Shown here: one piece after another, positions 4,609 through 20,455 of the stretch
How positions within the stretch are numbered: the first letter of the stretch is position 1
Layout: every line of letters starts with the position of its first letter
Assembly: GCA_041598875.1 (NCBI GenBank)
Contig: JBFHXP010000001.1
Location: 26,179-90,178, forward strand
Origin: Desulfobulbales bacterium
Lineage (GTDB): Bacteria; Desulfobacterota; Desulfobulbia; Desulfobulbales; BM004
Direction of reading: 5' to 3'
DNA: 64,000 nucleotides
Notes under the pieces: model-generated
What the model was told of the DNA's origin: nothing
Seen by the model: the letters and a program-made list of their open reading frames with translations, nothing else
The model's database searches: none
Program-made: the position numbers and the translations under genes

Positions 4609-6414
4609 CTAACCGAGATAGAGCAGGAGCAGCAGAAAAAAGAGGACAAAGACCCCGGAGCTGCCCACGGAAAAATAGGAGATGCGAAATTTTTCAATAA
4701 ATCTTTCCTCCAGGCCGCCGGGTCCTTTTATCCTTCCGTTGGAAAGCTCCCAGACCGGCTTGAGCACGGCAATACAGAGCCGGGCCGGCCCATCCTGAAA
4801 GTATCGGGAAAGCCCGCCGGTCCAGCCCTGGGCAACAGTCTTGTTGACCCAGGAGTTCAATCCGTTCAGCCAGGAGTCCAGGTTCATGTAAATCAGGGAC
4901 CCGCCGCGGCGGTAGAACCAGTCGAAATCAAGGGCAATGGTATCGGTCCGTTTCAACATCGGCAGAAAGAGAAAAAAGACCAGACCGGAAAATATCAGCA
5001 ATTGGGTCTGGGTAACCACATGGGAGAAATGATGGATATAAATCTCGTAAAAGGTATAGGGCATGGCCGCCTTGACGATTTCCGTATCCGGCAGGATGTT
5101 ATAGAGCCTTTCCGGAAACATGCCCAGGTAGATGCAGAAGAAGGAGAGAAAGGCCATGGCGGCCAGCATTGATTTGGGCGCTTCCGGCGGGCGCAGGCCT
5201 TTATCTTTGGCAAAAAACACAAAGTAGGGGAATTTTATTCCCGCATGGAGGAAAACACCGGCAGAGGCTATTTCCAGAATCAGCCAGGCCCAGAACATAT
5301 GGTTTCCAGCAGCTTCGGCAATAATTATTGTCTTACTGGTAAATCCGGAGGTCAGGGGAACCGAAGATATTGCCAGGGCGCCGACACAGCCGAAAATAAG
5401 TGTCCAGGGCATGGTATTGTAGAGTCCGCCAAGATCGGTGCATTTACTTTTCCCTGTCCGATAGAGTACGGCCCCGGCACTCATCCACAAAAGCGCCTTA
5501 TAGATTATGTGGCAGAAGGCATGGGCCACGGCGCCGTTCAAGGCCAGGGGGGTGCCAATTCCCACGGCACAGACCATGAAGCCGACCTGGTTGATAATCG
5601 AGTAGGCCAGGATCCGCCGCATATCATTTTCCAGCAGGGCATAGATAATTCCGTAAATTGTCATGGCGCAGCCAATGACGATGAGAATCTCCCAGCCCGG
5701 AAACCCGCGGATCAGGGTATAAACAGCTGTTTTTGAGGTATAGGCGCTCAGGATCACGCCGCCCATGACTGTGGATTCCGGGTACGCGTCCGGCAGCCAC
5801 GACGAAAAAGGCACGGCCGCGGCGTTCACCAGAAAACCAATCAGTATGAGCCAGGTGCCAGTGTTGGCCATGGCTGGGTCAAAGGAGTTGAAAGAAATGG
5901 AACCGGTCTGGTGAATGGTGATGATTATACCGGCAAGCAACACCAGCCCCCCGAATATATGGACCAGCACATAGCGGAAGGCGGCCTGATAGGCCTTTTT
6001 CGTTTTGCGCCCCAGGACAAGATAGACCGAGGTGACGGCCATGACCTCCCAGAAAATATACAGGGTGATGATATCACCGGCAAAGACCACCATCAGTGAT
6101 GCGCCGATATAGAGCAGGGCGGAAACGAACTGGGTTGAATTCCTTTCGTAGTACCCGTAGAGAAAGGCGGCAAATGCGCTCAGGGTAAAGATATAGCCAA
6201 AGGCCTTGCTCCACTTGTCGACCCGCAGAAGGTCGAGCTCAAAATCAATGAGCTGCACCGTCATGGTGACCGATTCCGAAAGCTGACTTATCTGCCAGAA
6301 GGCCAGGGCAGGCAGCAAGATAACAAACCAGTTCCTCGCGCGACCGGGCAGAAGTGGCACCACCAGCGCGCCGAGTATGAGTATAAGTCCGGGCGGAAGA
6401 TTAAACATCGTCAT
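4609..6414 (-). CDS. MrpA/MrpD/NuoL-like proton-conducting antiporter subunit with a C-terminal extension
   Basis: 601 aa with a PF00361-type core (WLPDAYPE.., HAFCHIIYKALLWM). It has ~120 extra C-terminal residues ending in a single TM (VFVLFFLLLLLYLG), reminiscent of the NuoL/MrpA lateral helix plus anchor. Confidence 0.85.
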   Translation of the reverse strand: MTMFNLPPGLILILGALVVPLLPGRARNWFVILLPALAFWQISQLSESVTMTVQLIDFELDLLRVDKWSKAFGYIFTLSAFAAFLYGYYERNSTQFVSALLYIGASLMVVFAGDIITLYIFWEVMAVTSVYLVLGRKTKKAYQAAFRYVLVHIFGGLVLLAGIIITIHQTGSISFNSFDPAMANTGTWLILIGFLVNAAAVPFSSWLPDAYPESTVMGGVILSAYTSKTAVYTLIRGFPGWEILIVIGCAMTIYGIIYALLENDMRRILAYSIINQVGFMVCAVGIGTPLALNGAVAHAFCHIIYKALLWMSAGAVLYRTGKSKCTDLGGLYNTMPWTLIFGCVGALAISSVPLTSGFTSKTIIIAEAAGNHMFWAWLILEIASAGVFLHAGIKFPYFVFFAKDKGLRPPEAPKSMLAAMAFLSFFCIYLGMFPERLYNILPDTEIVKAAMPYTFYEIYIHHFSHVVTQTQLLIFSGLVFFLFLPMLKRTDTIALDFDWFYRRGGSLIYMNLDSWLNGLNSWVNKTVAQGWTGGLSRYFQDGPARLCIAVLKPVWELSNGRIKGPGGLEERFIEKFRISYFSVGSSGVFVLFFLLLLLYLG

Positions 6415-6667
6415 CCTCGTAATAAGTCACATCTTTTTTCAGAAAAAACCCTAACCCCTTGGCCACGAGAATGCAGATCGCGCAGGCCAGAAATCCCAGC
6501 ACCGCATAGAAGCCAAAAAAATCTTCCTGGGGAAAATGATTTTTCCGGTGGATAAACGGCTCCAGCGCCAGAGAGAGGGCACAGACCCCCCATAAAATCC
6601 ACCAGAGTACTTTTCTCGTCTGCGGGCGGTCAAAAACCCCCCCATCTATTTCCGGTTCCGGCATCAC
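6401..6667 (-). CDS. Small 2-TM membrane protein embedded in the Mrp-like cluster
   Basis: 88 aa with two hydrophobic helices and an acidic tail (YYEDDDV). It overlaps the next gene by 14 nt. No family recognised. Confidence 0.5.
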   Translation of the reverse strand: MMPEPEIDGGVFDRPQTRKVLWWILWGVCALSLALEPFIHRKNHFPQEDFFGFYAVLGFLACAICILVAKGLGFFLKKDVTYYEDDDV

Positions 6668-6674
6668 TGGTCCC

Positions 6675-8147
6675 CTATTGAAACATTACATTGGCAAATC
6701 CCAGAAACAACCAAGGGAAAAAGAACAGAACAACGGACATGGCCGCGGTAATCACAGGAGGCAGCCAGCAGAAAATCGGCGCCTCGGCAACCTTGTTTTC
6801 AAACTTCGACTCCTCTTCCGTGCAGAAGAAGGCCTTATAGACAATGGGCAGGAAATAGGCGGCATTCAGGAAAGAACTGACCAGATAAATGACCAGGACC
6901 CAGATCATGTCCGCCTCCATGGCCCCGCGAACCATGAGCAGTTTGCTGATAAGCCCGCCGGCCGGCGGCAGGCCGATAACGCTCAGGGAGCCGACAAAAA
7001 AGGCGATCATGGTGATCGGCATCCGCTTGCCGATGCCGACCATTTCGCTGATGTATTTCTTGCCGGTGGCAACGAAAATTGCGCCAGCGCAGAAGAACAG
7101 GGTGATCTTGCCAAAGGCATGCATTGCGATATGGAGCATGCTGCCGGTGACGCCTAGTTTTGTGGCCAGGCCTGCCCCGAGAATAATATAGGAGAGCTGG
7201 CCGATTGTAGAGAATGCCAGCCGCCGCTTGAGATTGTCCTGGCTCAAGGCAATAAGCGAAGAGACGATTACCGTAAAGCCGGCAATCAGACAGATAAGGG
7301 TGTTGAGGTTGGTCGCGTCCAGAAGATTGATCCCGAAGATGCCGGTTATTACGCGAAGAATGCTGAAGACTCCGACCTTGACCACCGCCACCGCATGAAG
7401 CAGGGCGCTGACCGGGGTCGGGGCCACCATCGCCCCTGGCAGCCAGGAGTGAAAGGGCATCATCCCGGCCTTGGAAAAACCGAACATGAACATCAGCAGC
7501 ACAACGGTAAGAATCGGCTTGGCGGTGTCGGCGGGAAAGATCCCCATGCTGTTAAAATCAAGGGTCCCGGTAAGGGAATAGGTGATCAGCATCGCCGGCA
7601 GGGCCAGGCCAATGGAGGTTGAAAGAAGATAGGTCAGATACTTGCGGCCACCGCCCCGGGCCTCTTCATCCTGGTGGTGGGTGACCAGTGGATAGGTGGA
7701 AAGAGAGAGGATCTCGTAAAAGATATACAGGGTGAAAAGGTTGCCGGAAAAGGCCACTCCCAGGGTTGCGGAAAGGGCCACCGCAAAGCACATGAAATAC
7801 CGGGTCTGGGCATGCTCATCGAGGCCGCGCATGTACCCGATGGAGTATATCGAGGTGACGATCCACAGGGATGAGGCGACCAGGGCAAAGAGCATGCCGA
7901 AACCGTCAACCGTCAGGGTGACCGAGAGTCCCGGCAGGATCCGGCAGATATCGTAGGTATGTGTATTCCCCGCGAGAACCCACTGGGCCATTGAGAGAAC
8001 CAGCCCGAGCTTTATCACCGCGGCGATAAAGGTCCAGCTCTCCCGCAGATTGGGTCGCCTGTCACTCAGGTAGATAAGCGGCACCGCCGCAAGAGAGACG
8101 AGAACCGCCAGGGCTGGGGTAGATGGGATAAAGGGAATCTGATCCAT
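6675..8147 (-). CDS. MrpD/NuoN-like antiporter subunit
   Basis: 490-aa polytopic protein with motifs FHSWLPGAMVAPTPVSALLHA and SQLSYIILG, typical of the NuoL/M/N-MrpD family. Confidence 0.9.
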   Translation of the reverse strand: MDQIPFIPSTPALAVLVSLAAVPLIYLSDRRPNLRESWTFIAAVIKLGLVLSMAQWVLAGNTHTYDICRILPGLSVTLTVDGFGMLFALVASSLWIVTSIYSIGYMRGLDEHAQTRYFMCFAVALSATLGVAFSGNLFTLYIFYEILSLSTYPLVTHHQDEEARGGGRKYLTYLLSTSIGLALPAMLITYSLTGTLDFNSMGIFPADTAKPILTVVLLMFMFGFSKAGMMPFHSWLPGAMVAPTPVSALLHAVAVVKVGVFSILRVITGIFGINLLDATNLNTLICLIAGFTVIVSSLIALSQDNLKRRLAFSTIGQLSYIILGAGLATKLGVTGSMLHIAMHAFGKITLFFCAGAIFVATGKKYISEMVGIGKRMPITMIAFFVGSLSVIGLPPAGGLISKLLMVRGAMEADMIWVLVIYLVSSFLNAAYFLPIVYKAFFCTEEESKFENKVAEAPIFCWLPPVITAAMSVVLFFFPWLFLGFANVMFQ

Positions 8148-8179
8148 AATCTATATTCTAAAGGGAAGGTTAAGGAGCT

Positions 8180-9670
8180 TTATAATCCTGATGGAATTGC
8201 CCACTGTACGATATGGGTGACAATTTCATTGGTATAGAGACCGATAACAACAAGGGTGGCGGCGGTCACAACCATCGGGACAATCATGGTTGCCGGCGCC
8301 TCATCTCTGGGCGGCAGGGCATGATCACCGTGGGCCTCAAAGGTGCCGAAATAGGCAATCTCGATAAGCCGGAAAAAGATGACGGCATTTATCAGACTTG
8401 AAAAGAGCAGGGCCACCACGTAAACCCACTGCCCGGCCTCAATTCCGCCCTGGATAAGATACCATTTACTGAAAAACCCGCAGGTCGGCGGAATACCGAT
8501 AATTGAAAACGCGCCCAGGATGAATACCGCCGAGGTTATCGGCATCCTGCGGAAGACGCCCTCCATGGCGGCAAAAGATGATGTGCCGGTTTTATAGATC
8601 ATGGCGCCCACGGCCATGAACAGACAGAGGGTCATCACCGCGTCACTCAGGATGTGGTAGATGGTGCCGGTAAGGCCGTTGGCATTAGCCAACCATGCCC
8701 CGCCGACCATATACCCAACCTCGGCTACGATAATATAGGTGAGCATCTTTTTCAGATCCCGCTGGGCCAGGGCGGAAATCGAACCAGCGACAATGGCCAG
8801 ACTGGCAAACCAGACAACCAGCTCGTGCCACGGTATGGTCTTAAAAACGTAGTCCACGGAAAATACCGAGAACATCATCCGGACCATGACATAGACGCTG
8901 ACCTTGGTCATAAGAGGGGCAACCAGGCAACTGGTGGTGGTGGAGGCCTGGCTGTAAGCATTGGGCAGCCAGCCGTGCATGGGGAAGAGACCCATTTTGA
9001 TCCAGAAACCCAGAATAATCAGGATAAAGCCGATGCGGATGGTGGCCGATTCATGCATTTCCGCCCGGGAAAGAATGGCAAAGAGATCCGCCATGTTCAG
9101 GGTTCCGGTCTTGATGTAGAGATAGCCGACCCCCAGGAGATATAAGCAGGCGCCGATGGTGCCCAGGATGATGTATTTGAAGGTGGCGTAATAGGCAAGG
9201 CCGCGGCCGCGTGCCAGCAGGGCATAGCTGGACAGGGCGGATATCTCCAGCAGAACATAAAGGTTAAAGGCATCCCCGGTGGCGACCATCCCAAGCAGGC
9301 CGGAGACAAGCAGGCAGTACAGGGTATAATAATGATGAATCCGGTCCGGGATCTCCTGGCGAACCGTCTCTTTTGAGTAGACAGCGGTGAGCAGGGCACA
9401 CCCTGAGACCATGCAGAGCACCAGGGCGCCGAGGTGGTCGACAACCAGCTCGATGCCAAAGGGCGGGGGCCAGTTGCCAAGCCGGTAGCGGATCGATTCA
9501 GTGGTCAGCATGACCTGAACAAGGGTATTCACCGCCGCGAAGAAAGACCCGGCCATTGCCAGCACCAGCAGAACAAAGGCAAGGGTGTCGCGGCGGCCGG
9601 CAAAAAGGCTGATCGCAAAGGCCGCCAGCAAGGGAAAGAGCAGGACAAGAATGGGATAATGTTCAGCCAT
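8180..9670 (-). CDS. MrpD/NuoM-like antiporter subunit
   Basis: 496-aa polytopic protein with motifs MHGWLPNAY and VAEVGYMVGG, in the NuoL/M/N-MrpD family. Confidence 0.9.
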   Translation of the reverse strand: MAEHYPILVLLFPLLAAFAISLFAGRRDTLAFVLLVLAMAGSFFAAVNTLVQVMLTTESIRYRLGNWPPPFGIELVVDHLGALVLCMVSGCALLTAVYSKETVRQEIPDRIHHYYTLYCLLVSGLLGMVATGDAFNLYVLLEISALSSYALLARGRGLAYYATFKYIILGTIGACLYLLGVGYLYIKTGTLNMADLFAILSRAEMHESATIRIGFILIILGFWIKMGLFPMHGWLPNAYSQASTTTSCLVAPLMTKVSVYVMVRMMFSVFSVDYVFKTIPWHELVVWFASLAIVAGSISALAQRDLKKMLTYIIVAEVGYMVGGAWLANANGLTGTIYHILSDAVMTLCLFMAVGAMIYKTGTSSFAAMEGVFRRMPITSAVFILGAFSIIGIPPTCGFFSKWYLIQGGIEAGQWVYVVALLFSSLINAVIFFRLIEIAYFGTFEAHGDHALPPRDEAPATMIVPMVVTAATLVVIGLYTNEIVTHIVQWAIPSGL

Positions 9671-10065
9671 TATTTTTCAATGGTCTCCAGGAGTTCATCT
9701 TCTTCAATGGTGCCATGCACCCGATAGATCTTCTGTAAAACTGCAAGGGCCACACCCAGGGTGGAAACACCGACCACAATGGCGGTCAGCATAAGCACAT
9801 GGGGTAACGGATTGGCATAGAGGGTCGGATCAATAGCCTGATGGGCCACATCGCCATGGCCATGGATGAGAATCGGGATGGAGGCCCCCTTCTTGTGACC
9901 GATGGAGACATAGAAGAGGATGATCGCCGACTGAAAAATCGACATGCCTATCACCTTCTTGAGCAGATTGTTCTTGGCAATCATCCCATAGAGGCCGATG
10001 AGCAAGAGAATCAGGGCAGCCCAGTAGTTATATTTGGCAACGACATCGTGCAATAGATCCTGCAT
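9670..10065 (-). CDS. MrpC/MnhC (NuoK-like) subunit
   Basis: 131 aa with 3 TM helices. The N-terminal segment reads YNYWAALILLLIGLYGMIAKNNLLKKVIGMSIFQSAIILFYV. The stop/start overlaps the next gene. Confidence 0.85.
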   Translation of the reverse strand: MQDLLHDVVAKYNYWAALILLLIGLYGMIAKNNLLKKVIGMSIFQSAIILFYVSIGHKKGASIPILIHGHGDVAHQAIDPTLYANPLPHVLMLTAIVVGVSTLGVALAVLQKIYRVHGTIEEDELLETIEK

Positions 10066-10073
10066 AACGTTCC

Positions 10074-10823
10074 CTAAAGCCCCTCGTCCAGATCCCCGCC
10101 CGAGGCGAGATCAACATAAAGTGAAAACATGATCGCCATAACGGTGATGGCAACGCCGACCTCAACCCCCAGCATGCCATGGGAGTGGGCCTCCAACTCG
10201 GTAATTCCCAGGAGGGTGCTCCAGGAGGCATAGGCAAGAAAGTTACCGCCCAGCAGAAGGCAAACGGCGCCGATGCCCACATAGATGAGCACACCGATAC
10301 CGCTTAAGCGCAGTACGGTTTTTTCCTTGAGGCGTTTAAGCACCATCTTGAGATCATAAGATATGGCCATGAGGATGAAACTGGCCCCTAAAATGACCCC
10401 GCCCTGAAAACCGCCGCCCGGACTGTGATGGCCGTGGGCAACCACATAGAGGGCAAAAATCTGCATCACCGGCACCAGAATACGGGACGCTGCCTGCAGA
10501 ATAATATCCGCATCCTTCCGGCTGGGCCGGGGCCTGGCAATTTTTTCCTTTTTGCGGTGGGTCCGGCGCAACACGGTGAGCACGGTAATGCCGGCGCAGA
10601 AAATAACAATGGTTTCAAACATGGTGTCATACCCGCGATAATCGGCCAGCACCGCAGTAACCATGTTGGGAACAGAGGTCTCCTCCATTGTTTTTTCAAT
10701 AAAATGAGGCGAGAGGTAGACGCTGGCCGGCGAATGGGGATCTCCCCAGTCAGGGAAATCACCCGCAGCCACGAGCAGCAGCACACCGATGGCGCATATT
10801 ATGAGAAAGGCGATTTGTTTCAA
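10074..10823 (-). CDS. MrpB/MnhB-domain subunit (MbhE/F-like fusion)
   Basis: Contains VTAVLADYRGYDTMFETIVIF and HGHHSPGGGFQGGVILGA, both hallmark MnhB-domain motifs. Confidence 0.85.
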   Translation of the reverse strand: MKQIAFLIICAIGVLLLVAAGDFPDWGDPHSPASVYLSPHFIEKTMEETSVPNMVTAVLADYRGYDTMFETIVIFCAGITVLTVLRRTHRKKEKIARPRPSRKDADIILQAASRILVPVMQIFALYVVAHGHHSPGGGFQGGVILGASFILMAISYDLKMVLKRLKEKTVLRLSGIGVLIYVGIGAVCLLLGGNFLAYASWSTLLGITELEAHSHGMLGVEVGVAITVMAIMFSLYVDLASGGDLDEGL

Positions 10824-10859
10824 AATGTTACCCTATCAAATGTGATCAATTCCAGTCCA

Positions 10860-11123
10860 TCAGTCCCGGGATCTCCGTTTTATGTGCAGGGCCGTGCCCA
10901 CCAGGAGCACGGTGCTCACTCCGGCGCCAACCGCGGCCTCGGTAAAGGCGACATCCACGGCCAGCATTTCAGTCCACATCAGACACATGAGAAAGCTGTA
11001 CGCCCCGCCGACAACCGCGCAGCTTACCAGGTCCCTGATGGTCAATGCCGCCACGGCGCAGAGAATGACCATAGCGAGAATCAACACATCGAATTGCCAT
11101 AACAGGCTGGTGTCCCAACTCAT
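10860..11123 (-). CDS. DUF4040 / MbhD-like subunit (equivalent of the MrpA C-terminal domain)
   Basis: 87 aa with 3 TM helices and the motif VDVAFTEAAVGAGVSTVLL. It sits between the mrpG and mrpB homologs, as in Mbh/Mbx membrane arms. Confidence 0.7.
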   Translation of the reverse strand: MSWDTSLLWQFDVLILAMVILCAVAALTIRDLVSCAVVGGAYSFLMCLMWTEMLAVDVAFTEAAVGAGVSTVLLVGTALHIKRRSRD

Positions 11124-11132
11124 TTTTTTCCC

Positions 11133-11504
11133 CTAGACTTGTTTTTCTTCCTTCCGGCGCTCTATGTCGAAACAGGCGTCACATTCTTGTTTGCGTTTTG
11201 TCCAGCATTTGACCTGGGCCTCAAAGCCGGCATCCATGATCGCGTGGGTGGCTGTGGGGCTGGCGATAAAAATAAAAACAATGATAAAGAGAATCTTGAT
11301 CGCAACAAGGCTCGTGCCAACCGTGAAATGGTTCAGGTGATAGAGGGCCAGCCCAGCGAGAAGCAGCACCGAAGAAAGGGTGTCGCCCTTGCCCGCGGCG
11401 TGCATGCGGGAGTAAAAGTCCGGAAAGCGGATGAGGCCGACCGAAGTGCCAAGGTAAAAAAAGAGGCCGAGACTTACGAGAAAGATGACTGCGATGTTAA
11501 GCAT
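11133..11504 (-). CDS. MrpG/MnhG subunit
   Basis: GLIRFPDFYSRMHAAGKGDTL is the signature MnhG motif. Confidence 0.85.
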   Translation of the reverse strand: MLNIAVIFLVSLGLFFYLGTSVGLIRFPDFYSRMHAAGKGDTLSSVLLLAGLALYHLNHFTVGTSLVAIKILFIIVFIFIASPTATHAIMDAGFEAQVKCWTKRKQECDACFDIERRKEEKQV

Positions 11505-11827
11505 TACTGTGCCGCCTCCGGTTGATTTTCCGTATCCACTTGTTTGCGGCGCTGGAAAAAGCGGGCCGCGGCCAACGAGGCGATGAAGTTCAGGAGGGCA
11601 TAGGCAATGGCGATATCGACAAACATGTCCACCTGATGATACAGGGTGCCGATGATAATGATCATGACCGTGGTCTTGGTGCCGATGACATTGACCCCCA
11701 GGACGCGGTCAATAACCGTGGGCCCATAGATCGCCCGGTATAGGGGCATGAACATGAAAAGCAGAAGAAGTACTCCGGCCAGGATAAAAAAGAAATCCAT
11801 GAAATCGCCAGACGCCGTTGCTTGCAT
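11504..11827 (-). CDS. MrpF/MnhF subunit
   Basis: The YRAIYGPTVIDRVLGVNVIGTKT motif, 3 TM helices, and overlapping start/stop codons with both neighbours. Confidence 0.85.
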   Translation of the reverse strand: MQATASGDFMDFFFILAGVLLLLFMFMPLYRAIYGPTVIDRVLGVNVIGTKTTVMIIIIGTLYHQVDMFVDIAIAYALLNFIASLAAARFFQRRKQVDTENQPEAAQ

Positions 11828-12333
11828 TATCTGTGCCCCCCCTCAAAGACCCAGGCCACCCGCCTCTCCATCTCGCTCATGTTTTCACTTGCAAGGTCCC
11901 CGGCAGCCTGACCACTGATCGCGTGAATATAAAAAAGATCGTCATGGATACGGATGGTCACCGTGCCGGGGGTCAGGGTGATGGAGTTGGCAAGCACGAA
12001 TTTGGCAAAATCGGTTTTGAGCTTTGTCCGGAAGGTGAAAATATAGGGATCGATTTCCCGCCGCATGATCCGCGGCGAGATCGCCAGGGCGATAACATGA
12101 AAATTGGCCACCCCTATCTGCCAGAAGAGCCAGCCGCAATAAGGGATAAAACGAAACGCCTCCTGAAGCCGCGCTGCCAGCCCCTTTTTCCGTTCCTGGA
12201 AAAAAAGATCCGCGGAGAGCAGGGTCACGATCAGGCAGGAGACCCCCCCCAGCGCCAGGTGGAACAGGTCGAATTTACCGGACAACATGATCCAGGCGAC
12301 AAAAAAGATGATAAAGGTTGCTACTGAAAACAT
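11827..12333 (-). CDS. MrpE/MnhE subunit
   Basis: LANSITLTPGTVTI motif and N-terminal WIMLSG helix. First gene of the Mrp-like block. Confidence 0.85.
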   Translation of the reverse strand: MFSVATFIIFFVAWIMLSGKFDLFHLALGGVSCLIVTLLSADLFFQERKKGLAARLQEAFRFIPYCGWLFWQIGVANFHVIALAISPRIMRREIDPYIFTFRTKLKTDFAKFVLANSITLTPGTVTIRIHDDLFYIHAISGQAAGDLASENMSEMERRVAWVFEGGHR

Positions 12334-12410: not shown

Positions 12411-13271
12411 TCAGTCAAGTATTATCTCTCTTTTCCGCTCTCCCTCATAGATAGAGGCGGTTTTGGCGACAATAAAATTGTTCTCAGGATTTTCCGCATC
12501 AGAGTCAACATTGATCCCGCCGATATACACCGCCTTGATCCCGCTTTCCCGGAGCAGGGAGTCAAAAACCCGGGAGCCAAGCTCAAGAAGCTTATCTGCG
12601 GCCGCTGCCATGGGATAGGGATTAGAGGATATCTCTTCAAGATAGGGCAGCAGCGCCTTTTCCACCTCATTCATCTCAAAATCACTGAGGTCGCGAAGAA
12701 CCTTTCCCGCCTTGCGATCCTTGTGCCGGGCAAGGACCCCGGCAAGAAGGCCGCATGACGAACCGGGTTTCTGCATCCCATACCTGTCGGTCAACCCAAG
12801 GGTCTCTTGCGAGTCACAGCCGACATGGGTCGCGTGCACCACCACGGTCCATTGGTTCTCTTTGACTTCCGGGATATGGTGCGATGGCGGCCCGAGGCTC
12901 TCCACGCTGCGGCCGGCCGGATAGGCGCCAAAGGCGTTGAGATCAAACCAGCCGGAACTCTTGCCAACCCCAGCCAGCAAGGAACCGAGCCGATCCTGGT
13001 TGTCATCTCGACATAAGCATTTTATACCCAGGGCGTTTTCCCCCAGACTGATTCCCTCATTATCAAGGGTTCGCTGGAGAAGAGAAACAAAGTCCGCATA
13101 GGTATACAACGCCCCTTCGCCTGAAAAGGCGTCCTTGATTTTTATTGCCGGATTTTCTCTGTTTTTTTGCATTCCACACCCCGTAATAGTGTATTCACTT
13201 TCTTTGCGGCTCACTGACTGCAATTCAAGGCTGCAAGCCGCATTCTTTTTTAACTCATTGTTATTTTGCAA
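12411..13271 (-). CDS. Soluble Cys/His-rich protein of unknown function (possible metalloenzyme)
   Basis: No TM helices and no family recognised with confidence. Conserved-looking motifs are IKCLCRDD, VVVHATHVGCD and GSSCGLL. The likely real start is M34 (ATG at 13172), because the first 33 codons are AT-rich and atypical. Confidence 0.6.
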   Translation of the reverse strand: MQNNNELKKNAACSLELQSVSRKESEYTITGCGMQKNRENPAIKIKDAFSGEGALYTYADFVSLLQRTLDNEGISLGENALGIKCLCRDDNQDRLGSLLAGVGKSSGWFDLNAFGAYPAGRSVESLGPPSHHIPEVKENQWTVVVHATHVGCDSQETLGLTDRYGMQKPGSSCGLLAGVLARHKDRKAGKVLRDLSDFEMNEVEKALLPYLEEISSNPYPMAAAADKLLELGSRVFDSLLRESGIKAVYIGGINVDSDAENPENNFIVAKTASIYEGERKREIILD

Positions 13272-13298
13272 CTATTCTGCTGCGCACCCTAAACTGGG

Positions 13299-14789
13299 TT
13301 AAACTGCAGGCAGATAGACCTGCATGCCCATGAGCGGCCAGACGAACTGGACCGCAATCCAGGTAATAACCATCAGTATTATGCTTGCCGGAACTCCGTA
13401 CATAAAGAATTCACCGGTGGTGAACTGCTTGGAGTTGTAGGCAATGGCATTGGGCGCCGCGCCAACCAGCAGCAGAAAGGGCATACCCGCCACCACCAGG
13501 GAGGAGAAGAGAATTACCTCGCCGGCAACGCCAAGATAGGGAGCGATAACCAGGGCCACCGGCAGGGAGATGGCAATGGCCGCCACGTTCATGATGAAGT
13601 TGGTCATCATCATGACGAAAAAGGCCATGCCGAGGATAAAAACAATTGCCGGGGCGCTCTGGAACAGGGTGAGCCAGTTGACCGCCATCCACTTGGCGGC
13701 CCCGGTCTCCCAGAGGCAGAAGCCAATGGACATGGCGCCGGCAAAGAGCAGAATAATGTTCCAGGGGATCTCTTCCAGGTCATTGATATCCAGGATATTG
13801 ACAATAAAGAACAGGATGGTGGAGCAGAGAAGGATACCTGTCTTGTCAAGAGGTTCGAGTGCGGGAACAAAGGCCTTGGCCGAGATGACCACGATGGTGG
13901 AGACAACGATAAAGGTGGCCATGATCTCTTTTTTGGACCAGGAGCCAAGCTCCCTGTACATCCTCTTGGCCTTTTCCTTCAGCCCTGGGATCGATTCCCT
14001 CTCAGGCTTGCAGACAAACATGAAAAATCCCCACAGGGCAAAGGTCATGCCCCAGCCGATGGGGAACATGTAATAGGTGAGTTCGAAAAAGCTGATATCG
14101 ACATTGGTGATATCCTTGTAGAAACCAAGGGCCACGGCGCCGCGGGCCGCGCCCAGCAGGGTGATGATACTGCCGGCGCCGGCCACGTAGGCCATGCCCA
14201 TGAACAACCCCTTGCCGAACTTGGTGGGCCCGGTTTCTTCGGAATAGAGGGCGTAAATCGCCATCAGCAAAGGAAACATGGTGGCAGCGACCGCGGTGTG
14301 GGCCATGATGTGGGTGAGCGCCGCGGTCAGCACAAAACAGCCGAGATAGATCATTGAGGTCTTCTCGCCGACAATGGAGAGCATTTTATAGGCAATGCGT
14401 TTGGTCAAGCCGGTCTTGGTGAAGACCATGCCGATAACAATGGAGCCGAAAATAAAGAGAACCGAGGGATCCATGAAATCCTTGAAGGCAACCTTGGCCG
14501 GGCGGATGAAAAACAGGGCCTGGACCATGCCGATGGTCAGGCTGGTGACACCGATCGGCACCACCTCGAAAACCCACCAGGTGGCGGCAAGAAGAAAGAG
14601 GGCGATGGCCCCCTTGCCTTCCATGGTCAGGAGAAAATGCTCACCCATGGGATCAACCGCATCGGGCCACAGGGGTGAATAATAGACAACGCAAAACAGC
14701 ACAACTCCCGTTACCAGGAAGATGGCCCGCTTCAAATCAAAGGGCGTCTTTTCCATAGCCACCCCCACTTCTGTCTGTGATTTTGTCAT
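13299..14789 (-). CDS. DASS/SLC13 family anion:cation symporter
   Basis: 496-aa polytopic protein. N-terminal segment ATWWVFEVVPIGVTSL and C-terminal segment GAAPNAIAYNS match the hairpin-loop motifs typical of SLC13/DASS permeases. Confidence 0.85.
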   Translation of the reverse strand: MTKSQTEVGVAMEKTPFDLKRAIFLVTGVVLFCVVYYSPLWPDAVDPMGEHFLLTMEGKGAIALFLLAATWWVFEVVPIGVTSLTIGMVQALFFIRPAKVAFKDFMDPSVLFIFGSIVIGMVFTKTGLTKRIAYKMLSIVGEKTSMIYLGCFVLTAALTHIMAHTAVAATMFPLLMAIYALYSEETGPTKFGKGLFMGMAYVAGAGSIITLLGAARGAVALGFYKDITNVDISFFELTYYMFPIGWGMTFALWGFFMFVCKPERESIPGLKEKAKRMYRELGSWSKKEIMATFIVVSTIVVISAKAFVPALEPLDKTGILLCSTILFFIVNILDINDLEEIPWNIILLFAGAMSIGFCLWETGAAKWMAVNWLTLFQSAPAIVFILGMAFFVMMMTNFIMNVAAIAISLPVALVIAPYLGVAGEVILFSSLVVAGMPFLLLVGAAPNAIAYNSKQFTTGEFFMYGVPASIILMVITWIAVQFVWPLMGMQVYLPAV

Positions 14790-14837: not shown

Positions 14838-15380
14838 TTACAGCCTGCACCGGGTGCTGATTCCCTTGAATATCTCCTCGAGCCGGATGACACCGACAAC
14901 GGCCTCTTCCTCAAGAACCGGCAAGATAACCTCATTGGTGCTGAGCATGATGGACAGGGCCTTCAAGAGAGGGTCGCCCCCCTTGACAATGTGCCGTATC
15001 GGAGTCAAAAACGTCTTGATCGCCTTGCCGGACTGCCGGGAACAGCCCTCAAAAAAGGAGTCCTCCCACATGATTGTCAGATTGGGAAAATCAGTCCCCT
15101 TTCCTTCAAACTTTTTGACCTTTGCAAGTTCGACCAGCCGGGAGTCAAGCCCCATCAGTATGCTCTGCAGATTGATACGGCCGACCAGCTTGTTCTGATC
15201 ATTAATAACCAAGATCTCGGAATACCTGAGGCGCTCGTTTTCACCGCAGGTGTATGCCATGATCACCTGCACGGCATCGTGGATCGTCTGGTTCTCGTTT
15301 AAATGGGGGTACCTCTCCAGGGGAATAGTATAACGCCTGACAACCGGATTATCTGCGCTCACAAGCAACCTCCTTCTCAA
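14838..15380 (-). CDS. CBS domain pair protein
   Basis: 180 aa with two CBS-like segments (..ILVINDQNKLVGRINLQSIL.. and ..VILPVLEEEAVVGVIRLEEIF..). No other domain. Confidence 0.8.
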   Translation of the reverse strand: MRRRLLVSADNPVVRRYTIPLERYPHLNENQTIHDAVQVIMAYTCGENERLRYSEILVINDQNKLVGRINLQSILMGLDSRLVELAKVKKFEGKGTDFPNLTIMWEDSFFEGCSRQSGKAIKTFLTPIRHIVKGGDPLLKALSIMLSTNEVILPVLEEEAVVGVIRLEEIFKGISTRCRL

Positions 15381-15529: not shown

Positions 15530-15970
15530 CTACCAGCTCTTGCTTTTGAGTATCTTCTTCACTTCTTCTTCACGCCCCTTTTCCACAACCACCATCCGCT
15601 TGTTCTTGGCCTGGCTGATCTTCTCGAGCAGCACATTCAAGTCAACCGGCTTTTCAAGGAAATCCTCGGCGCCGAGCTTCATCGCCTCGATGCCGGTTTT
15701 TACCGTGGCATGGCCGGTGAGCATGATAATCTCGAGATCAGGGCGGCTTTCCTTGATCCGCCTCAGGGTCTCAATGCCGTCGATTCCCGGCATTGCGAGG
15801 TCGACAACAATGGCGTCAAAATTCTTCTCCTTGGCCTGCTCAATGGCATCCTCTCCGCTGGTCACCGCGTTTACCTTGAGGCCACGGGTTTCCAGGCGCT
15901 GGGAAAGCGCATCCAAAAATTGCTCCTCATCATCAACCAGCAATACACTGGCCTCAATTTTTTCAGCCAT
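15530..15970 (-). CDS. Stand-alone response-regulator receiver
   Basis: Canonical receiver residues: LLVDDEE, VVDLAMPGIDG, MLTGHAT, LEKPVD. No output domain. Confidence 0.9.
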   Translation of the reverse strand: MAEKIEASVLLVDDEEQFLDALSQRLETRGLKVNAVTSGEDAIEQAKEKNFDAIVVDLAMPGIDGIETLRRIKESRPDLEIIMLTGHATVKTGIEAMKLGAEDFLEKPVDLNVLLEKISQAKNKRMVVVEKGREEEVKKILKSKSW

Positions 15971-15979
15971 TACAGTCTC

Positions 15980-16447
15980 CTATTTAGTATCTTCTTTTTT
16001 ATCGAGAAAATTCCGGGCCATATCCGGTTCACCGGCCTCGGCAAAGGCCGCGGCAGCCATGGTGTCCTGAATTTTATCCCGATACGCGTCTTTTATGGAT
16101 TTGACCAGATGATCGATATCAACCGGTTTTTTGATATAATCATATATGCCGATCCGCCGGGCCTCATCCTCATCCCGGTCCGACCCATGCCCGGTCAGAA
16201 TAATCACCCTGATGTCAGGAAATTTTTTCTTGACCCGCCGCAAGACCTCGATGCCGTCGATGCCGGGCATCTTAAGATCGAGCACCATCACGTCCGGCTC
16301 CCTGTCGTCGACAAAACTCAAGGCCTGCTCGCCGTCAAAGACGGTCTCGTTTTCCAGGTCCCGCATCTGCAGCCGCTCAGACAGGGTCTTAACAAACTCC
16401 TGCTCATCATCAACAAGCAATACCTTCATCTTAGCCATGTTTTCCAC
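15980..16447 (-). CDS. Stand-alone receiver with a C-terminal FAEAGE-type tail motif
   Basis: Canonical receiver residues: LLVDDEQ, VLDLKMPGIDG, ILTGHGS, IKKPVD. The tail reads IQDTMAAAAFAEAGEPDMARNFL. The start is likely M4 or M7. Confidence 0.9.
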   Translation of the reverse strand: MENMAKMKVLLVDDEQEFVKTLSERLQMRDLENETVFDGEQALSFVDDREPDVMVLDLKMPGIDGIEVLRRVKKKFPDIRVIILTGHGSDRDEDEARRIGIYDYIKKPVDIDHLVKSIKDAYRDKIQDTMAAAAFAEAGEPDMARNFLDKKEDTK

Positions 16448-17044: not shown

Positions 17045-17332
17045 TCAGCAATCAATGGTCCCAAAGGCAAGATGCGCACCCGGAATCCCCAGCTCACTGA
17101 AGTCGCTGCGAGAAGAACCGCGGCCCTTCTCCCTGGGCTCAATCATGTTCAACGCCTCATTATAGAGTCCGGACTCGGCAAAGGTCACTGCCGTGAAAAT
17201 CTTATCGAACCAGGTAATGTTCGCGGTTCGCCGGACCTCCGGCATGATCTCCCTGGCGGTGTCCCACTCTCCTGCCTCGGCAAAAGTCACGGCCATCATC
17301 ATATCCTGGATTTTTTTTAAGGTCTTTTTCAT
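17045..17332 (-). CDS. 95-aa protein made of two FAEAGE-type motif copies
   Basis: First ORF downstream of the sigma54 promoter. It contains IQDMMMAVTFAEAGEWDTAREIM and WFDKIFTAVTFAESGLYNEALNMI. The motif DNA is about 75% identical to the copy in the next gene. Confidence 0.6.
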   Translation of the reverse strand: MKKTLKKIQDMMMAVTFAEAGEWDTAREIMPEVRRTANITWFDKIFTAVTFAESGLYNEALNMIEPREKGRGSSRSDFSELGIPGAHLAFGTIDC

Positions 17333-17398: not shown

Positions 17399-17413
17399 GC
17401 AAAAGGTGTGCCA
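17399..17413 (-). promoter_or_regulatory. Sigma54 (RpoN) -24/-12 promoter
   Basis: The minus strand reads TGGCACACCTTTTGC, a near-perfect match to TGGCAC-N5-TTGC. It lies 66 nt upstream of the 95-aa ORF start. An AT-rich tract just upstream (17414-17450) could be an IHF site. The bEBP gene is adjacent. Confidence 0.75.
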
Positions 17414-17787: not shown

Positions 17788-19158
17788 TCAGGTTTTTTCA
17801 TCCCGAAAGGAGTGCAGGTCAATCCCATGTCGATTGATCTTGTCATACAGGCTTTTTCTCGAAATCATCAGGGCCTTATGGGTGGCGATGACCTGGCCCT
17901 TGTGCGCACGCAGCGCGGCAATAATATGATTCTTTTCCGCCTCATCCACCGCCTGCCGCAGAGGGACCGGCTGACCCGCGCGGGACTCCGGCCCTGTTGC
18001 CGAACCTGTTTCATCTGCCCCGGAAAGCGCATCGCGGTAAACACACAGCCTTCTTATATGGTTTTTAAACTCCCGGACATTTCCCGGCCACTCCCGTCTG
18101 CACAAACGATTCACGGACACGGAGTCAAAAGAGGCCGGATCCATGCCGTACTCCTTGCAGAAATGATGCAACAGAAGGGGTATGTCCGACAGCCGCTCCC
18201 GCAGGGGCGGGACTGTAATCGGCAGCACATTCAGCCGGAAATAGAGATCCTGGCGGAAACGCCCGGCCCCTATCTCGCTGGCAAGAACACTGTTTGTCGC
18301 CGACAGGATCCGCGCCCGCACCGGGGTGGGGGTATTTGCCCCAAGGCGGGTGACCGCCCGATCCTCCAGGACCCGGAGGAGCTTTGCCTGCAGGCCCACG
18401 GGCATGCTGCATATCTCATCAAGAAAAATCGTGCCTTTGCCGGCATATTCAAACTTACCCATCTTGGCCAGCCCGGCCCCGGTGAAGGCCCCTTTTTCAT
18501 GGCCGAACAGCTCCGCCTCGAGCATTTCCGTGGGTATTGCCCCCATGTTGACGGCAACAAAGGGCCCTTCACTCCGTGTTGACAGATTATGAATGGCCCG
18601 GGCCACCAGCTCCTTGCCGGTACCGGTCTCACCGGAAATCAGGACCGGGTCATCTTCCCGTGCCACGATCTCGATGGTGTCATAAAGACGCCGCATCAAA
18701 TGGTGGCCGCCGACAAGACCGTTAAAGCTGAAACGCGCCCCCCGGACCCGTTCCAGCTGGCGGCAGAGCCCCCGGTTATCGAGAACCAGCCGCATCTTTT
18801 CCACTGCCCGGGAAAGGGCGCCTAAAAGGATCTCCTCGTCCACCGGCTTTTCGAGAAAATCGTATGCCCCGTTCTTCATCGCCTTGACCGCCATATCGAC
18901 ATCACCGTGGCCGGTCACCATGATCACCGGCAGATCACGATCCTGGACCCTGGTCCGCTGTAAAAATTCCAGTCCATCAATCAGGGGCATCTTGATGTCG
19001 GCGATCACCGCGAGATAGACGCCGGAGGAAAGCGAGGCCAGGGCCTCGGCCGGGGTGCTGAAACTGTCGACCTCATACCCGTGCATGGTGAGGGTCTGAT
19101 GTATGGCAATGAGCAGATACGTGTCATCGTCGACCACCAGTATTTTTCCGATTTTCAT
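17788..19158 (-). CDS. NtrC-family sigma54-dependent response regulator (REC-AAA+-Fis HTH)
   Basis: Receiver (ILVVDDD, IADIKMP), AAA+ Walker A GETGTGKE, GAFTGA loop, and a C-terminal HTH. The start is chosen at MKIGKIL (19158), giving a 7-nt gap after the kinase gene. Confidence 0.9.
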   Translation of the reverse strand: MKIGKILVVDDDTYLLIAIHQTLTMHGYEVDSFSTPAEALASLSSGVYLAVIADIKMPLIDGLEFLQRTRVQDRDLPVIMVTGHGDVDMAVKAMKNGAYDFLEKPVDEEILLGALSRAVEKMRLVLDNRGLCRQLERVRGARFSFNGLVGGHHLMRRLYDTIEIVAREDDPVLISGETGTGKELVARAIHNLSTRSEGPFVAVNMGAIPTEMLEAELFGHEKGAFTGAGLAKMGKFEYAGKGTIFLDEICSMPVGLQAKLLRVLEDRAVTRLGANTPTPVRARILSATNSVLASEIGAGRFRQDLYFRLNVLPITVPPLRERLSDIPLLLHHFCKEYGMDPASFDSVSVNRLCRREWPGNVREFKNHIRRLCVYRDALSGADETGSATGPESRAGQPVPLRQAVDEAEKNHIIAALRAHKGQVIATHKALMISRKSLYDKINRHGIDLHSFRDEKT

Positions 19159-19165
19159 ACATCCA

Positions 19166-20455
19166 TTACCTGTGTGCATCTGCGTCCTCTTCGCAACGCG
19201 GGGGCAGGTGAATCAAAAAACAGGCCCCTTCCCCCGGCGCACTTTCCACTTTGATAAAACCACCGCTTTCCCGGACTATCCGGTCAACGATGGACAGGCC
19301 CAGGCCCATTCCGGTCCCCACCTCCCGGGTGGTGAAAAAGGGATCAAAGATCCTGGTCAGCACATCAGGAGAAATTCCCGTGCCGGTATCCCGAATCGCG
19401 GCAACAACATACTCTTTTTCCTGGAGGCTCTCGGGCTCAATACTCTTTATTGTACTGGTTTTTATCGTCAAACGCGGGGAGTCGGTTTCCCCCATTGACT
19501 GGACCGCATTCTGAATGACATTCAAAAAGACCTGCTCAAACCTGACCTCCTGGCCGATGACCAGGGGAACAGAGCGGTCAAGGTCCAGCTCCACCTCAAT
19601 ATCCGAAAGGGCAAGCTGGCTGTCGAGAAACTTGAGAATATTGATTAAAATTGAATTAATTTCCACGGGGCAGGAGTCGGAGACCTCTTTACGGGCAAAA
19701 CTTTTCAGACTCTTGATAATTGATGAGGCCTTTTTTATCCGGTCGATAATGATCTGGAGATTTTCCTCCAACAGCTCTCTGTTAATGGTCGGCTCTTCTA
19801 AGGCTTTCAGACAGTTGCGCGAAAAGAGAAGCATCGCGTTCAAGGGCTGGGTCAATTCATGGCCTATCCCGGCCGCCATCTCGCCAAGGCTGGCCAGCCG
19901 GCCGGAGTGAATCAACTGCTCCTGGGCCTCTCGAATCCTGGACATCATCTTATGGGCATCGCTCATGTCCCTGGCAATCATCATGTGAAGCACCCGGCCC
20001 GATTCCGTGACAAAGGTCGAGCCATTGATGCTTACCCGAATCCTCTCCCCCCCACGGGCCTTGAATTCCGTTTCCCAGTTCTTGAACTCACCGGCGGAAA
20101 TACGTGCCTTGAGGGAGCGGCACGCCCCCTCATCCATGAGTGCATCCAGGGAGACCCTGCCATAATCTTCTGCCGGAAAATCAAGCAGGTGCAAAAACTC
20201 CTCGTTTGAGTTGGCAATAACAAAGTCCTTTGTCATGACAAAAAAGAGGTCTGAAAGACTTGCAAGGATCTTCTCTGAAAAGACCTTTTCCGTCTGGACC
20301 TCTTCATGTTTCTTCAGAATCCGAACGACCAGATCCTGTTTCTGCCTTTCAAGCAGTTCAACCAGTTTTTCGTTCGGCTCCATTCCCCTCGCACCCGCCC
20401 TTGACCATACACCTGAAAATTCACCCGGAGTACCCAGACCCCGACCCTGTGTCAC
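19166..20455 (-). CDS. PAS-domain sensor histidine kinase (cytoplasmic)
   Basis: H-box MAAGIGHELTQPLN, N-box NVIQNAVQS, G-boxes DTGTGI and GTGMGLGLS. A PAS-like region lies N-terminal and there are no TM helices. An alternative start is at 20383 (MEPNEK). Confidence 0.9.
   Translation of the reverse strand: MTQGRGLGTPGEFSGVWSRAGARGMEPNEKLVELLERQKQDLVVRILKKHEEVQTEKVFSEKILASLSDLFFVMTKDFVIANSNEEFLHLLDFPAEDYGRVSLDALMDEGACRSLKARISAGEFKNWETEFKARGGERIRVSINGSTFVTESGRVLHMMIARDMSDAHKMMSRIREAQEQLIHSGRLASLGEMAAGIGHELTQPLNAMLLFSRNCLKALEEPTINRELLEENLQIIIDRIKKASSIIKSLKSFARKEVSDSCPVEINSILINILKFLDSQLALSDIEVELDLDRSVPLVIGQEVRFEQVFLNVIQNAVQSMGETDSPRLTIKTSTIKSIEPESLQEKEYVVAAIRDTGTGISPDVLTRIFDPFFTTREVGTGMGLGLSIVDRIVRESGGFIKVESAPGEGACFLIHLPPRCEEDADAHR

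Follow-up and report, generated by a model that had tools for sequence, protein, structure and literature searches.

A 64,000-nt stretch of a Desulfobulbales bacterium contig (the window) encodes, between a DASS permease and an Mrp-like module, a soluble Cys/His-rich protein. What is this protein, and which of its two membrane neighbours does it serve? An earlier note, made from the sequence alone, had left it an orphan, suspected a metal site resembling that of beta-carbonic anhydrases (beta-CAs), and considered coupling to the Mrp-like module in the manner of the DAB and Cup systems.

The open reading frame at 12411..13271 (-) was verified as encoding 286 aa from a TTG start. Residue numbers throughout refer to this mechanical ORF, which extends up to the TTG at 13271. 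The motifs described previously were all found in place: IKCLC87-R88-D89-D, with Asn at position 91; VVVHATH149-VGC152-D, where H149 follows C87 by 62 residues; and GSSC173-GLL (codons are given in Table 1). The distances to the neighbouring genes were likewise confirmed: DASS ends (stop at 13299) 27 nt before the ORF, and MrpE starts (12333) 77 nt after it. The true start is probably the ATG of M34 at 13172, since residues 1-36 are disordered in the AF2 model, no homologue alignment extends upstream of about residue 42, a 253-aa product is called in an independent assembly and contig (L011), and the ATG is preceded by a Shine-Dalgarno-like GGGGTG. Relative to the sister allele dN/dS is 0.15, the only two private substitutions are both conservative, and a second sample carries an identical allele, a pattern that points to a functional gene under purifying selection.

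A Pfam scan assigned the protein to PF18599 (LCIB_C_CA), one of the families suggested in the earlier note, with an E-value of 1.6e-17 and 64 bits (cut-off 25) over profile positions 3-220 of 223. The same scan returned neither Pro_CA (PF00484) nor DUF2309/DabA (PF10070), even at E<=1, and a scan of NCBIfam gave zero matches. A profile of homologues found solved LCIB-family PDB chains at E-values from 1e-48 to 1e-30. The AF2 model (pLDDT 87.9, pTM 0.83) had Phaeodactylum PtLCIB4 (5b5y) as its top Foldseek match (E 6e-17, TM 0.85), followed by 6kfs, CrLCIB and LCIC (5k5w, 5b5x), and then by Rv3588c and the pea beta-CA (2a5v, 1ekj); canonical beta-CAs are distant fold matches only, with TM of 0.4-0.57. 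The protein is thus almost certainly a member of the LCIB (theta, beta-like) CA family and fold, and no longer an orphan. It represents a known kind of enzyme, an LCIB-type CA, in an undescribed bacterial setting: theta/LCIB CAs appear in one review as diatom and green-algal enzymes (PMC7215798) and in another as mainly confined to diatoms and protozoa (PMC13098186).

The metal site suspected earlier is supported, with one ligand corrected. C87, H149 and C173, the predicted ligands, are invariant in 28 homologues with identity down to 20%, but C152, the cysteine of the HxxC motif, had to be rejected as the third ligand: it is conserved in the close clade only and replaced by L, I or V elsewhere. 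C173, previously offered as an alternative, lies 24 residues past H149, matching the H102 to C126 spacing of PtLCIB4. Together with the PF18599 match, the invariance of the three residues indicates that the motifs are not a chance occurrence. H132 and R163 are also invariant and D89 is more than 90% conserved in sequences down to 20% identity. C87, D89, H132, H149, R163 and C173 align with C46, D48, H88, H102, R116 and C126 of PtLCIB4 (the S47R entry supplied the numbering offset), H132 being aligned with the residue mutated in 5b5z (H88A); His162 and Arg194 of CrLCIB have been named as important (PMC5876011). By homology, Zn2+ would be bound by C87, H149, C173 and one water, and D89 with its partner R163, plus H132, would complete the site at the dimer interface, as in diatom PtLCIB4. 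Because this partner comes from another part of the chain, a CxDxR signature is not expected. Membership of the canonical beta-CAs (Pro_CA) was discarded given the absence of a PF00484 match, N91 in place of Arg, and the loss of C152 outside the close clade. The protein is likely to be a catalytically active CA.

Loci of relatives were scanned with the close-clade alignment A2. In 17 of 18 informative loci, the gene immediately upstream of LCIB was a DASS orthologue (74-89% identity); L020 is a locus in which LCIB, fused to a receiver (REC) domain, has no DASS. Next to the closest DASS orthologue (89%), the same slot holds a different, divergent 398-aa LCIB-like gene (hhalign 97.8%). Two loci (L014 and L015) carry the cassette described below with no LCIB gene, and the 343-aa gene that follows DASS there was rejected as LCIB-like (hhalign probability 0.8%). 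Among distant homologues, one locus (L012) is too short for context, two eukaryotic-looking ones (L031 and L033) contain tandem LCIB paralogues with GOST_TM or Tim10 neighbours, and a bacterial one (L032) has no nearby transporter, so the link with DASS is specific to this clade. The conserved partner of LCIB is therefore the upstream DASS permease, and we consider it rather probable that the two work together. That the anion carried is bicarbonate is a more tentative, somewhat doubtful proposal; we know of no DASS-family bicarbonate transporter. Where VcINDY has its SNT hairpin motifs, the permease has AHT and MNV, and its source annotations read dicarboxylate transporter. In sulfate reducers, related DASS proteins are regarded as candidates for sulfate transport (PMC5840216).

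LCIB closes a gene cassette that is conserved in Desulfobulbales; ahead of it lie genes for a 95-aa protein, three REC proteins, a CBS protein and DASS (Table 1). The cassette genes are separated by short gaps with no terminator-like site between them. The 95-aa protein has no Pfam match; a motif scan revealed two copies of AxTFAEAGExDxAR in it and the same motif at the end of two of the REC proteins. The sequence TGGCAC-N5-TTGC has a single perfect match within the 64 kb, located in the 455-nt gap downstream of a sigma-54 activator gene. The cassette is probably transcribed from this sigma-54 promoter under the NtrC-type activator and its kinase (17788..20455), which presumably regulate it.

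Table 1. Positions in the window of the LCIB gene, its predicted catalytic residues and the surrounding cassette
Feature	Position	Strand	Basis or remark
Nine-gene Mrp-type antiporter module, directly downstream of LCIB	4609..12333	(-)	Pfam domains
LCIB/theta-type (beta-like) putative carbonic anhydrase gene	12411..13172	(-)	253 aa from probable start M34; PF18599, PDB matches, AF2/Foldseek
Stretch with predicted catalytic residues	12753..13013	(-)	Invariant or near-invariant columns, alignments A1 and A3
Codon of C87	13013-13011	(-)	
Codon of D89	13007-13005	(-)	
Codon of H132	12878-12876	(-)	
Codon of H149	12827-12825	(-)	
Codon of R163	12785-12783	(-)	
Codon of C173	12755-12753	(-)	
200-nt replacement segment	13107..13306	(-)	blastn of window vs L010 and L011
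DASS/SLC13-type anion:cation symporter	13299..14789	(-)	PF00939 (1.7e-38) and PF03600
CBS-pair protein	14838..15380	(-)	PF00571; position just upstream of DASS kept in all cassettes
Three stand-alone REC proteins	15530-15970, 15980-16447, 16431-16979	(-)	PF00072; gene order kept in relatives
Conserved 95-aa protein, first gene of the cassette	17045..17332	(-)	Kept in relatives
Sigma-54 promoter-like element TGGCACaccttTTGC	17399..17413	(-)	First ATG of the cassette lies 67 nt downstream
NtrC-type sigma-54 activator	17788-19179	(-)	REC, Sigma54_activat, HTH_8
PAS histidine kinase	19166-20455	(-)	PAS, HisKA, HATPase_c

In most relatives an N-terminal REC domain is fused to LCIB, as in a 362-aa protein (P0153) that is about 92% identical to the window protein in its LCIB domain; the REC of such relatives is canonical, with the DD, D, S and K residues present. 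No REC (PF00072) was found by Pfam scan in the window protein, and the interval between DASS and LCIB is too small for one. In the window, a 200-nt segment takes the place of the 516 nt of spacer and REC-coding sequence found in the sister contig L010; it includes the stop codon of DASS, the spacer and LCIB's new N-terminus, and no further copy of it exists in the window or the retrieved loci. REC-less forms with a similar N-terminus occur in P0002 (76% identity) and in other branches. The closest relation of the fused REC domains is the second of the three stand-alone REC proteins (15980-16447), at 49-59% identity. In most relatives the enzyme would thus take the place of a response-regulator output domain, switched by phosphorylation, and the window copy may be constitutive or controlled via transcription only. 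The phrase 'carbonic anhydrase domain' was absent from the 12 best-ranked papers on receiver domains, a weak negative on receiver-CA fusions.

Most likely, LCIB acts as a cytoplasmic CA in support of pH balance and of the Na+-coupled transport of an anion, which may be bicarbonate. As a whole, the best explanation (a soluble cytoplasmic LCIB-type zinc CA, encoded in one cassette with DASS and serving Na+-coupled anion transport) seems to us reasonably probable. LCIB would equilibrate CO2 with HCO3- and H+ at the cytoplasmic face, alongside Na+-coupled anion uptake by DASS. It might dehydrate imported bicarbonate, or it might act as a buffer for the load of protons and charge that anion/Na+ symport imposes. 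In the window lineage the operon appears to continue into a Mrp Na+/H+ antiporter, which would recycle Na+ and return H+. A wider proposal, in which DASS, LCIB and, where present, Mrp or CitMHS form a sigma-54/phosphorelay-controlled device for inorganic-carbon uptake and pH homeostasis in non-phototrophic Desulfobulbales, is on balance unlikely. Were it true, DASS and LCIB/theta proteins would make up a CO2-concentrating system driven by a Na+ cycle, a role not known for either in bacteria, with a CA switched on and off by receiver phosphorylation in most members.

The alternative that survives best is an LCIB fold devoid of CA function: a CO2/bicarbonate sensor, a DASS or receiver regulator, or a protein with partner-dependent activity. 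Recombinant CrLCIB and LCIC were inactive in vitro, so membership of the LCIB family is no guarantee of activity (PMC5876011). Such a role would also fit the signalling-rich cassette and the REC fusion of relatives, which puts LCIB where an output domain is usual. R88 corresponds to the position altered in the S47R structure of PtLCIB4, and the residue after the first Cys sets PtLCIB4 (Ser) apart from bacterial and S47R sequences. Arg at this position is, however, the majority state in bacterial homologues and hence not a special inactivating change. The invariance of the catalytic residues, including H132 and R163, across deep divergence also argues against loss of function, as do diatom homologues reported to be constitutively active (PMC9614477). 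We regard a non-enzymatic or partner-dependent LCIB as improbable.

Still less probable is that the CA-like protein docks on a Mrp antiporter-like subunit and carries out energy-coupled one-way hydration of CO2, like DabA/DabB or CupA/NDH-1. The Mrp module comprises MrpE, F, G, MbhD, MrpB/MbhE, MrpC and three MrpD-like subunits. The 77-nt gap between LCIB and MrpE contains no terminator-like site, three of the module's subunits belong to PF00361, and DAB offers the precedent of a beta-CA-like subunit coupled to a PF00361 protein (PMC13144422). The LCIB-Mrp order is repeated in L010 and L011 and in the distant L029 (LCIB 64%, Mrp subunits 44-68% identical). Yet among loci with downstream sequence these three and the window are the only ones with this adjacency: of about 20 related loci, only those of two lineages show the co-occurrence with Mrp that the earlier note proposed to examine, and most of the loci have no Mrp homologue after LCIB, with a CitMHS permease or unrelated genes there. 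Moreover, PF10070 (DabA) is unmatched even at E<=1, DabA and Cup structures are missing among the top 50 fold matches, and the Mrp set looks complete and self-sufficient as an antiporter operon. LCIB is more diverged (dS 0.27) than the adjacent Mrp genes (about 0.1), suggesting separate histories. With no DabA or Pro_CA match and with DASS as the conserved partner, the DAB/Cup-like coupling to Mrp finds no support in the form envisaged in the earlier note; an obligate DAB-like complex is unlikely, and a looser link between LCIB and Mrp through the Na+/H+ cycle is possible.

The beta-CA-like site might instead hydrolyse a sulfur analogue of CO2, carbonyl sulfide (COS) or CS2. This would suit a sulfur-cycling Desulfobulbales host with TauE/SafE-family genes nearby (2916-3773 and 23494-24897), and beta-CAs of clade D hydrolyse COS and are weakly active as CAs (PMC13098186); still, the protein shows no sequence or fold affinity to COSases or CS2 hydrolases beyond the general beta-CA fold, and we grade the idea as speculative and very improbable. 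Finally, a decaying, functionless remnant left after receiver loss, as could be suggested by the replacement of the 516-nt REC-coding stretch of the sister contig by unrelated sequence and by the disorder of the first 36 residues encoded by the long ORF, is hardly credible given the intact reading frame, the low dN/dS with two conservative private substitutions only, the identical allele in an independent sample, and the REC-less forms elsewhere.

With the preferred reading, a CA working beside DASS, the former orphan can be named by family, and its metal ligands and functional partner are set right. This reading also defines a bacterial LCIB clade linked to one particular anion permease and to a two-component/sigma-54 circuit. 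If DASS carries bicarbonate, anaerobic sediment bacteria would possess a new bacterial type of inorganic-carbon uptake. The REC-LCIB proteins offer an experimentally tractable system for asking what gates LCIB activity and why part of the family lacks it in vitro.

The closest known counterparts are PtLCIB4 and PtLCIB3 of Phaeodactylum tricornutum (5b5y, 6kfs), both active CAs. They share with the window protein the Pfam family, the fold (TM 0.82-0.86, rmsd 2.6-3.3 A), the Cys-His-Cys columns with 24 residues between His and the second Cys, the Asp, the equivalent of His88, and the Arg. Identity is only about 20%, however, and the window protein is bacterial and cytoplasmic, whereas the diatom proteins reside in the plastid; it has Arg after the first Cys where PtLCIB4 has Ser, and its gene, unlike theirs, shares an operon with those for a DASS permease and signalling proteins. 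Chlamydomonas LCIB/LCIC (5k5w, 5b5x) have the same family and fold, with a weaker match (TM 0.73-0.77). Chlamydomonas LCIB and the window protein are both found in an inorganic-carbon/anion-transport setting, the former being reported to act with the anion channel LCIA (PMC7215798). Phosphorylation control is suspected for algal LCIB (PMC9614477), and bacterial relatives have a built-in phospho-switch in the form of REC. The algal proteins differ in being about 448 aa long with extensions, in forming LCIB-LCIC complexes around the pyrenoid, and in being inactive in vitro (PMC5876011).

DAB and CupA/NDH-1 resemble the window in having a beta-CA-like zinc protein beside PF00361 antiporter-like subunits (PMC13144422). 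In the window, however, the CA partner comes from a family other than DabA (no PF10070 match), relatives do not generally keep it next to Mrp, and a complete Mrp set of nine genes stands where DAB has a single DabB. Transporter-linked CAs are not without parallel: SulP-CA fusions were reportedly described by Felce and Saier in 2004. In cyanobacteria, where a Na+ cycle supports bicarbonate uptake, SbtA accompanies an mnh/Mrp-like operon, whose Mrp-type complex has been proposed to maintain the Na+ gradient (PMC4390856). The SulP-CA and SbtA systems share with the window the logic of an anion/Na+ symporter and a CA with Mrp-type Na+ support, but the window would build it from a DASS/SLC13 transporter and another CA family, in a non-phototrophic anaerobe.

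The Cys/His-rich protein encoded between a DASS permease and an Mrp module, regarded in the earlier note as an orphan with a possible beta-carbonic-anhydrase-like metal site, belongs by family, fold and conserved catalytic residues to the LCIB-type carbonic anhydrases (CAs). The ORF exists as proposed and encodes the motifs IKCLC87-R-D89-D, VVVHATH149-VGC152-D and GSSC173-GLL. In the Pfam scan suggested for it, the single, full-length match was LCIB_C_CA (PF18599; E 1.6e-17, 64 bits, cut-off 25); Pro_CA and DabA/DUF2309 gave no match even at E ≤ 1, and an NCBIfam scan gave none. The sequence matched solved LCIB-family chains (9w05/9vzj, 6kfs, PtLCIB4 of Phaeodactylum tricornutum, 5b5y, and CrLCIB of Chlamydomonas, 5k5w), and a homologue profile matched such chains at E 1e-48 to 1e-30. 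The AlphaFold2 model (pLDDT 87.9, pTM 0.83) had PtLCIB4 as its top PDB match (E 6e-17, TM 0.85, rmsd 2.7 Å), followed by 6kfs, CrLCIB and LCIC, and then canonical beta-CAs, with Rv3588c and pea beta-CA at TM 0.4–0.57.

When 28 homologues with identity down to 20% were aligned, C87, H132, P134, H149, G151, G159, R163, C173 and G174 were invariant and D89 was conserved in more than 90%; the same columns were again invariant when distant members alone were aligned. C87, D89, H132, H149, R163 and C173 align with PtLCIB4 C46, D48, H88, H102, R116 and C126 (numbering offset set from the S47R entry). PDB 5b5z carries a mutation at PtLCIB4 H88, the counterpart of H132, and CrLCIB His162 and Arg194, equivalents of H132 and R163, are important for active-site integrity according to a review (PMC5876011). 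Together, the invariant columns and the correspondence with PtLCIB4 predict a Cys-His-Cys metal site with LCIB spacing. The beta-CA-like site was thus recognised correctly, with the exception of its third ligand, which is C173 and not C152. The CxDxR...HxxC signature was rejected as the metal site, C152 being kept in the close clade only, with L, I or V in other homologues. R88 occupies the position of PtLCIB4 S47, where Arg is the majority state in bacterial homologues.

Translation likely starts at ATG M34 (13172), giving 253 aa, because residues 1–36 of the model are disordered, homologues in the 28-member alignment cover the ORF only from about residue 42 onward, GGGGTG stands ahead of this ATG, and the exact 253-aa product was called in an independent assembly.

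Coordinates of features in the window and in related loci or contigs fetched for comparison (L numbers)
Feature	Sequence	Position	Strand	Remark
Sigma-70-type factor gene	window	1954-2820
mrpE	window	11827-12333	-	begins 77 nt past LCIB ORF
LCIB ORF	window	12411..13271	-	286 aa from TTG
200-nt segment	window	13107-13306		no detectable homologue
DASS permease gene	window	13299-14789	-	stop 27 nt before LCIB ORF
Stand-alone REC gene	window	15980-16447
Copies of ~15-residue motif	window	17255-17290, 17153-17188, 16515-16550, 16016-16051	-
Sigma-54 element	window	17413-17399	-	TGGCACaccttTTGC
Divergently oriented block	window	20712-25580	+
REC-LCIB genes	L001; L002; L010	10001-11071; 10001-11092; 396-1484		~362 aa
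516-nt stretch encoding REC	L010	273-788
CitMHS permease gene	L002	11373-12803		~470 aa
LCIB-like gene	L013	11558-12754		398 aa
CitMHS downstream of LCIB	L002/L005, L006, L007, L027, L028; also L013			in L013 after LCIB-like gene
Mrp downstream of LCIB	window, L010, L011, distant L029			Mrp subunits of L029 44–68% identical
Unrelated genes downstream of LCIB	remaining loci with downstream sequence

A word-indexed search returned 54 close clusters (52–100% identity), mostly from Desulfobulbaceae MAGs, and most of them are proteins of about 362 aa in which an N-terminal receiver domain (REC, PF00072) is fused to LCIB. Among the 100 hits at E ≤ 1e-3 from an exhaustive search over 1.84 billion representatives, just two clusters exceeded 50% identity; identity then falls to about 30%. 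The clade is compact and well separated within a sparse family. Outside it, bacterial members such as those of Planctomycetota, Nitrospirae and bacterium HR19 have been labelled hypothetical proteins; in reviews, theta-CA is listed as a diatom and green-algal enzyme (PMC7215798) or described as mainly confined to diatoms and protozoa (PMC13098186). Two metagenome contigs with distant LCIB homologues, L031 and L033, look eukaryotic (tandem LCIB paralogues; GOST_TM, Tim10 and NB-ARC/TPR neighbours), so part of the seemingly metagenomic LCIB diversity is algal, not bacterial.

Response regulators combining REC and LCIB_C_CA make up about 45 of the 54 clusters. Their REC has the DD, D, S and K residues typical of receivers and is closest (49–59%) to the stand-alone REC at 15980-16447 in the window cassette, a similarity that suggests origin by duplication inside the cassette. 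The phrase ‘carbonic anhydrase domain’ was absent from the best-ranked literature of a receiver-domain search, a weak negative.

The window copy lacks REC. The sister contig L010, 96.6% identical to the window over the Mrp genes, encodes a 362-aa REC-LCIB protein (P0153), and its 516-nt REC-coding stretch is replaced in the window by the 200-nt segment, with no detectable homology between the two. The window allele recurs exactly in L011, from a second sample, and P0002, a REC-less relative with 76% identity, has its N-terminus in common with the window protein. LCIB dN/dS against L010 is 0.15 and the window protein has just two private substitutions, both conservative (F86L and F267I): the gene is under purifying selection and is not decaying. 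Together with this segment swap, the excess of dS in LCIB (0.27 vs ~0.1 in adjacent Mrp genes) points to recombination at 13107-13306. A rough neighbour-joining tree scatters the REC-less forms and has a REC-fused lineage as its deepest branch; since it carries no support values, we only tentatively attribute the REC-less state to allelic replacement by recombination and not to a fresh deletion.

Window proteins were mapped on 30 related loci by tblastn, complemented with gene calls. Of 18 loci whose upstream sequence could be read, 17 have a DASS orthologue (74–89% identity) directly upstream of [REC-]LCIB, a count that includes some near-duplicate loci; the sole exception, L020, has TrkA there. 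LCIB-DASS synteny is thus conserved. The fuller conserved cassette comprises a sigma-54 activator, a NifX-like protein, a dCache kinase, REC, two small proteins, three REC proteins, a CBS protein, DASS and [REC-]LCIB. With more than 120 clusters at ≥84% identity, the DASS clade far exceeds the LCIB clade in size, and L014 and L015 have the cassette without LCIB. In L013, the closest DASS orthologue (89%) precedes, in the LCIB slot, a divergent LCIB-like gene (hhalign 97.8%; sub-threshold in Pfam, 21 bits) whose product retains all C, D, H, H, R and C residues and possibly represents an unrecognised LCIB subfamily; its C-terminal half is inserted or extended. The presence of two distinct LCIB lineages in the post-DASS slot argues for a functional link between DASS and LCIB. 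Mrp, previously proposed as the partner system, is not conserved as a neighbour across these loci; DASS is.

CitMHS permeases (80–87% identical among L002, L006, L007, L013, L027 and L028) occupy the place of the Mrp module in at least five lineages, where LCIB has an anion permease of the ion-transporter superfamily on either side. In L013 a gene for a sigma-70-type factor, 56% identical to that of the window, comes next after the CitMHS permease. This makes it possible that the Mrp, SmMDR and TauE block of the window was inserted. The divergently oriented block (HTH/REC-like protein, dCache kinase, REC protein, 467-aa TauE-family permease and 228-aa protein) matches the regulatory half that lies upstream in the relatives' cassette, but is inverted in the window and has the TauE gene inserted.

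The DASS permease, extremely conserved in Desulfobulbales and annotated as a dicarboxylate transporter, is distantly related to VcINDY and SLC13 (E 1e-20). In place of the two VcINDY-type SNT hairpin-tip motifs it has AHT and MNV, and ARGA in place of the first PPNA, so its substrate cannot be read from homology; judged from sequence, these replacements hint at a non-canonical substrate or different ion coupling. In sulfate reducers, DASS proteins are also candidates for sulfate transport (PMC5840216).

The 64 kb contain a single perfect match to the sigma-54 promoter consensus TGGCAC-N5-TTGC. It is 67 nt upstream of the first cassette gene and just downstream of genes for a PAS kinase and an NtrC-type activator, between the activator gene and the cassette. 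Genes are closely spaced from 17332 through mrpE, and the LCIB-mrpE gap contains no terminator-like site; we infer that transcripts starting at this promoter run through LCIB into Mrp. Four copies of a ~15-residue motif, (M)A[AV][AT]FA[EQ][AS]G[EL]x[DN]xA[RL], are encoded in the window, two in the 95-aa first cassette protein and one ending each of two stand-alone REC proteins. The motif, kept in L001, L002, L013, L014 and L029, may be a docking peptide.

The LCIB protein is presumably a cytoplasmic CA: it lacks a signal peptide and any transmembrane segment, and its relatives are joined to a REC domain, which is cytoplasmic. It would bring CO2 and HCO3- plus H+ to equilibrium alongside Na+-coupled anion uptake. 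If the DASS anion were bicarbonate, dehydration would use up H+, and in the window lineage the Mrp antiporter would pump out co-transported Na+ and return H+. With sulfate or a carboxylate, the CA would buffer pH and charge, or else supply or remove CO2 for linked metabolism. In relatives, REC would gate the CA, plausibly via the dimer interface, the place at which active sites of the beta-CA type are formed.

A non-catalytic role as sensor or regulator is improbable but deserves most weight among the alternatives, given that CrLCIB lacks in vitro activity, many signalling genes lie around and R88 sits at the S47R position. Somewhat less probable still is an obligate CA-Mrp complex resembling DAB or Cup: LCIB-Mrp adjacency does recur in two divergent lineages, making a functional link possible, but the CA family is different and this adjacency is not general. 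Hydrolysis of COS or CS2 is speculative and very unlikely, and a decaying remnant, contradicted by the selection data, scarcely merits consideration.

The earlier interpretation was therefore partly right: the site is beta-CA-like, in a protein of the LCIB family, but the third ligand and the partner system had been wrongly assigned. This known enzyme family thus gains a new bacterial member, in an undescribed setting: linked to DASS, probably under sigma-54/phosphorelay control, fused to REC in relatives and sometimes followed by Mrp.
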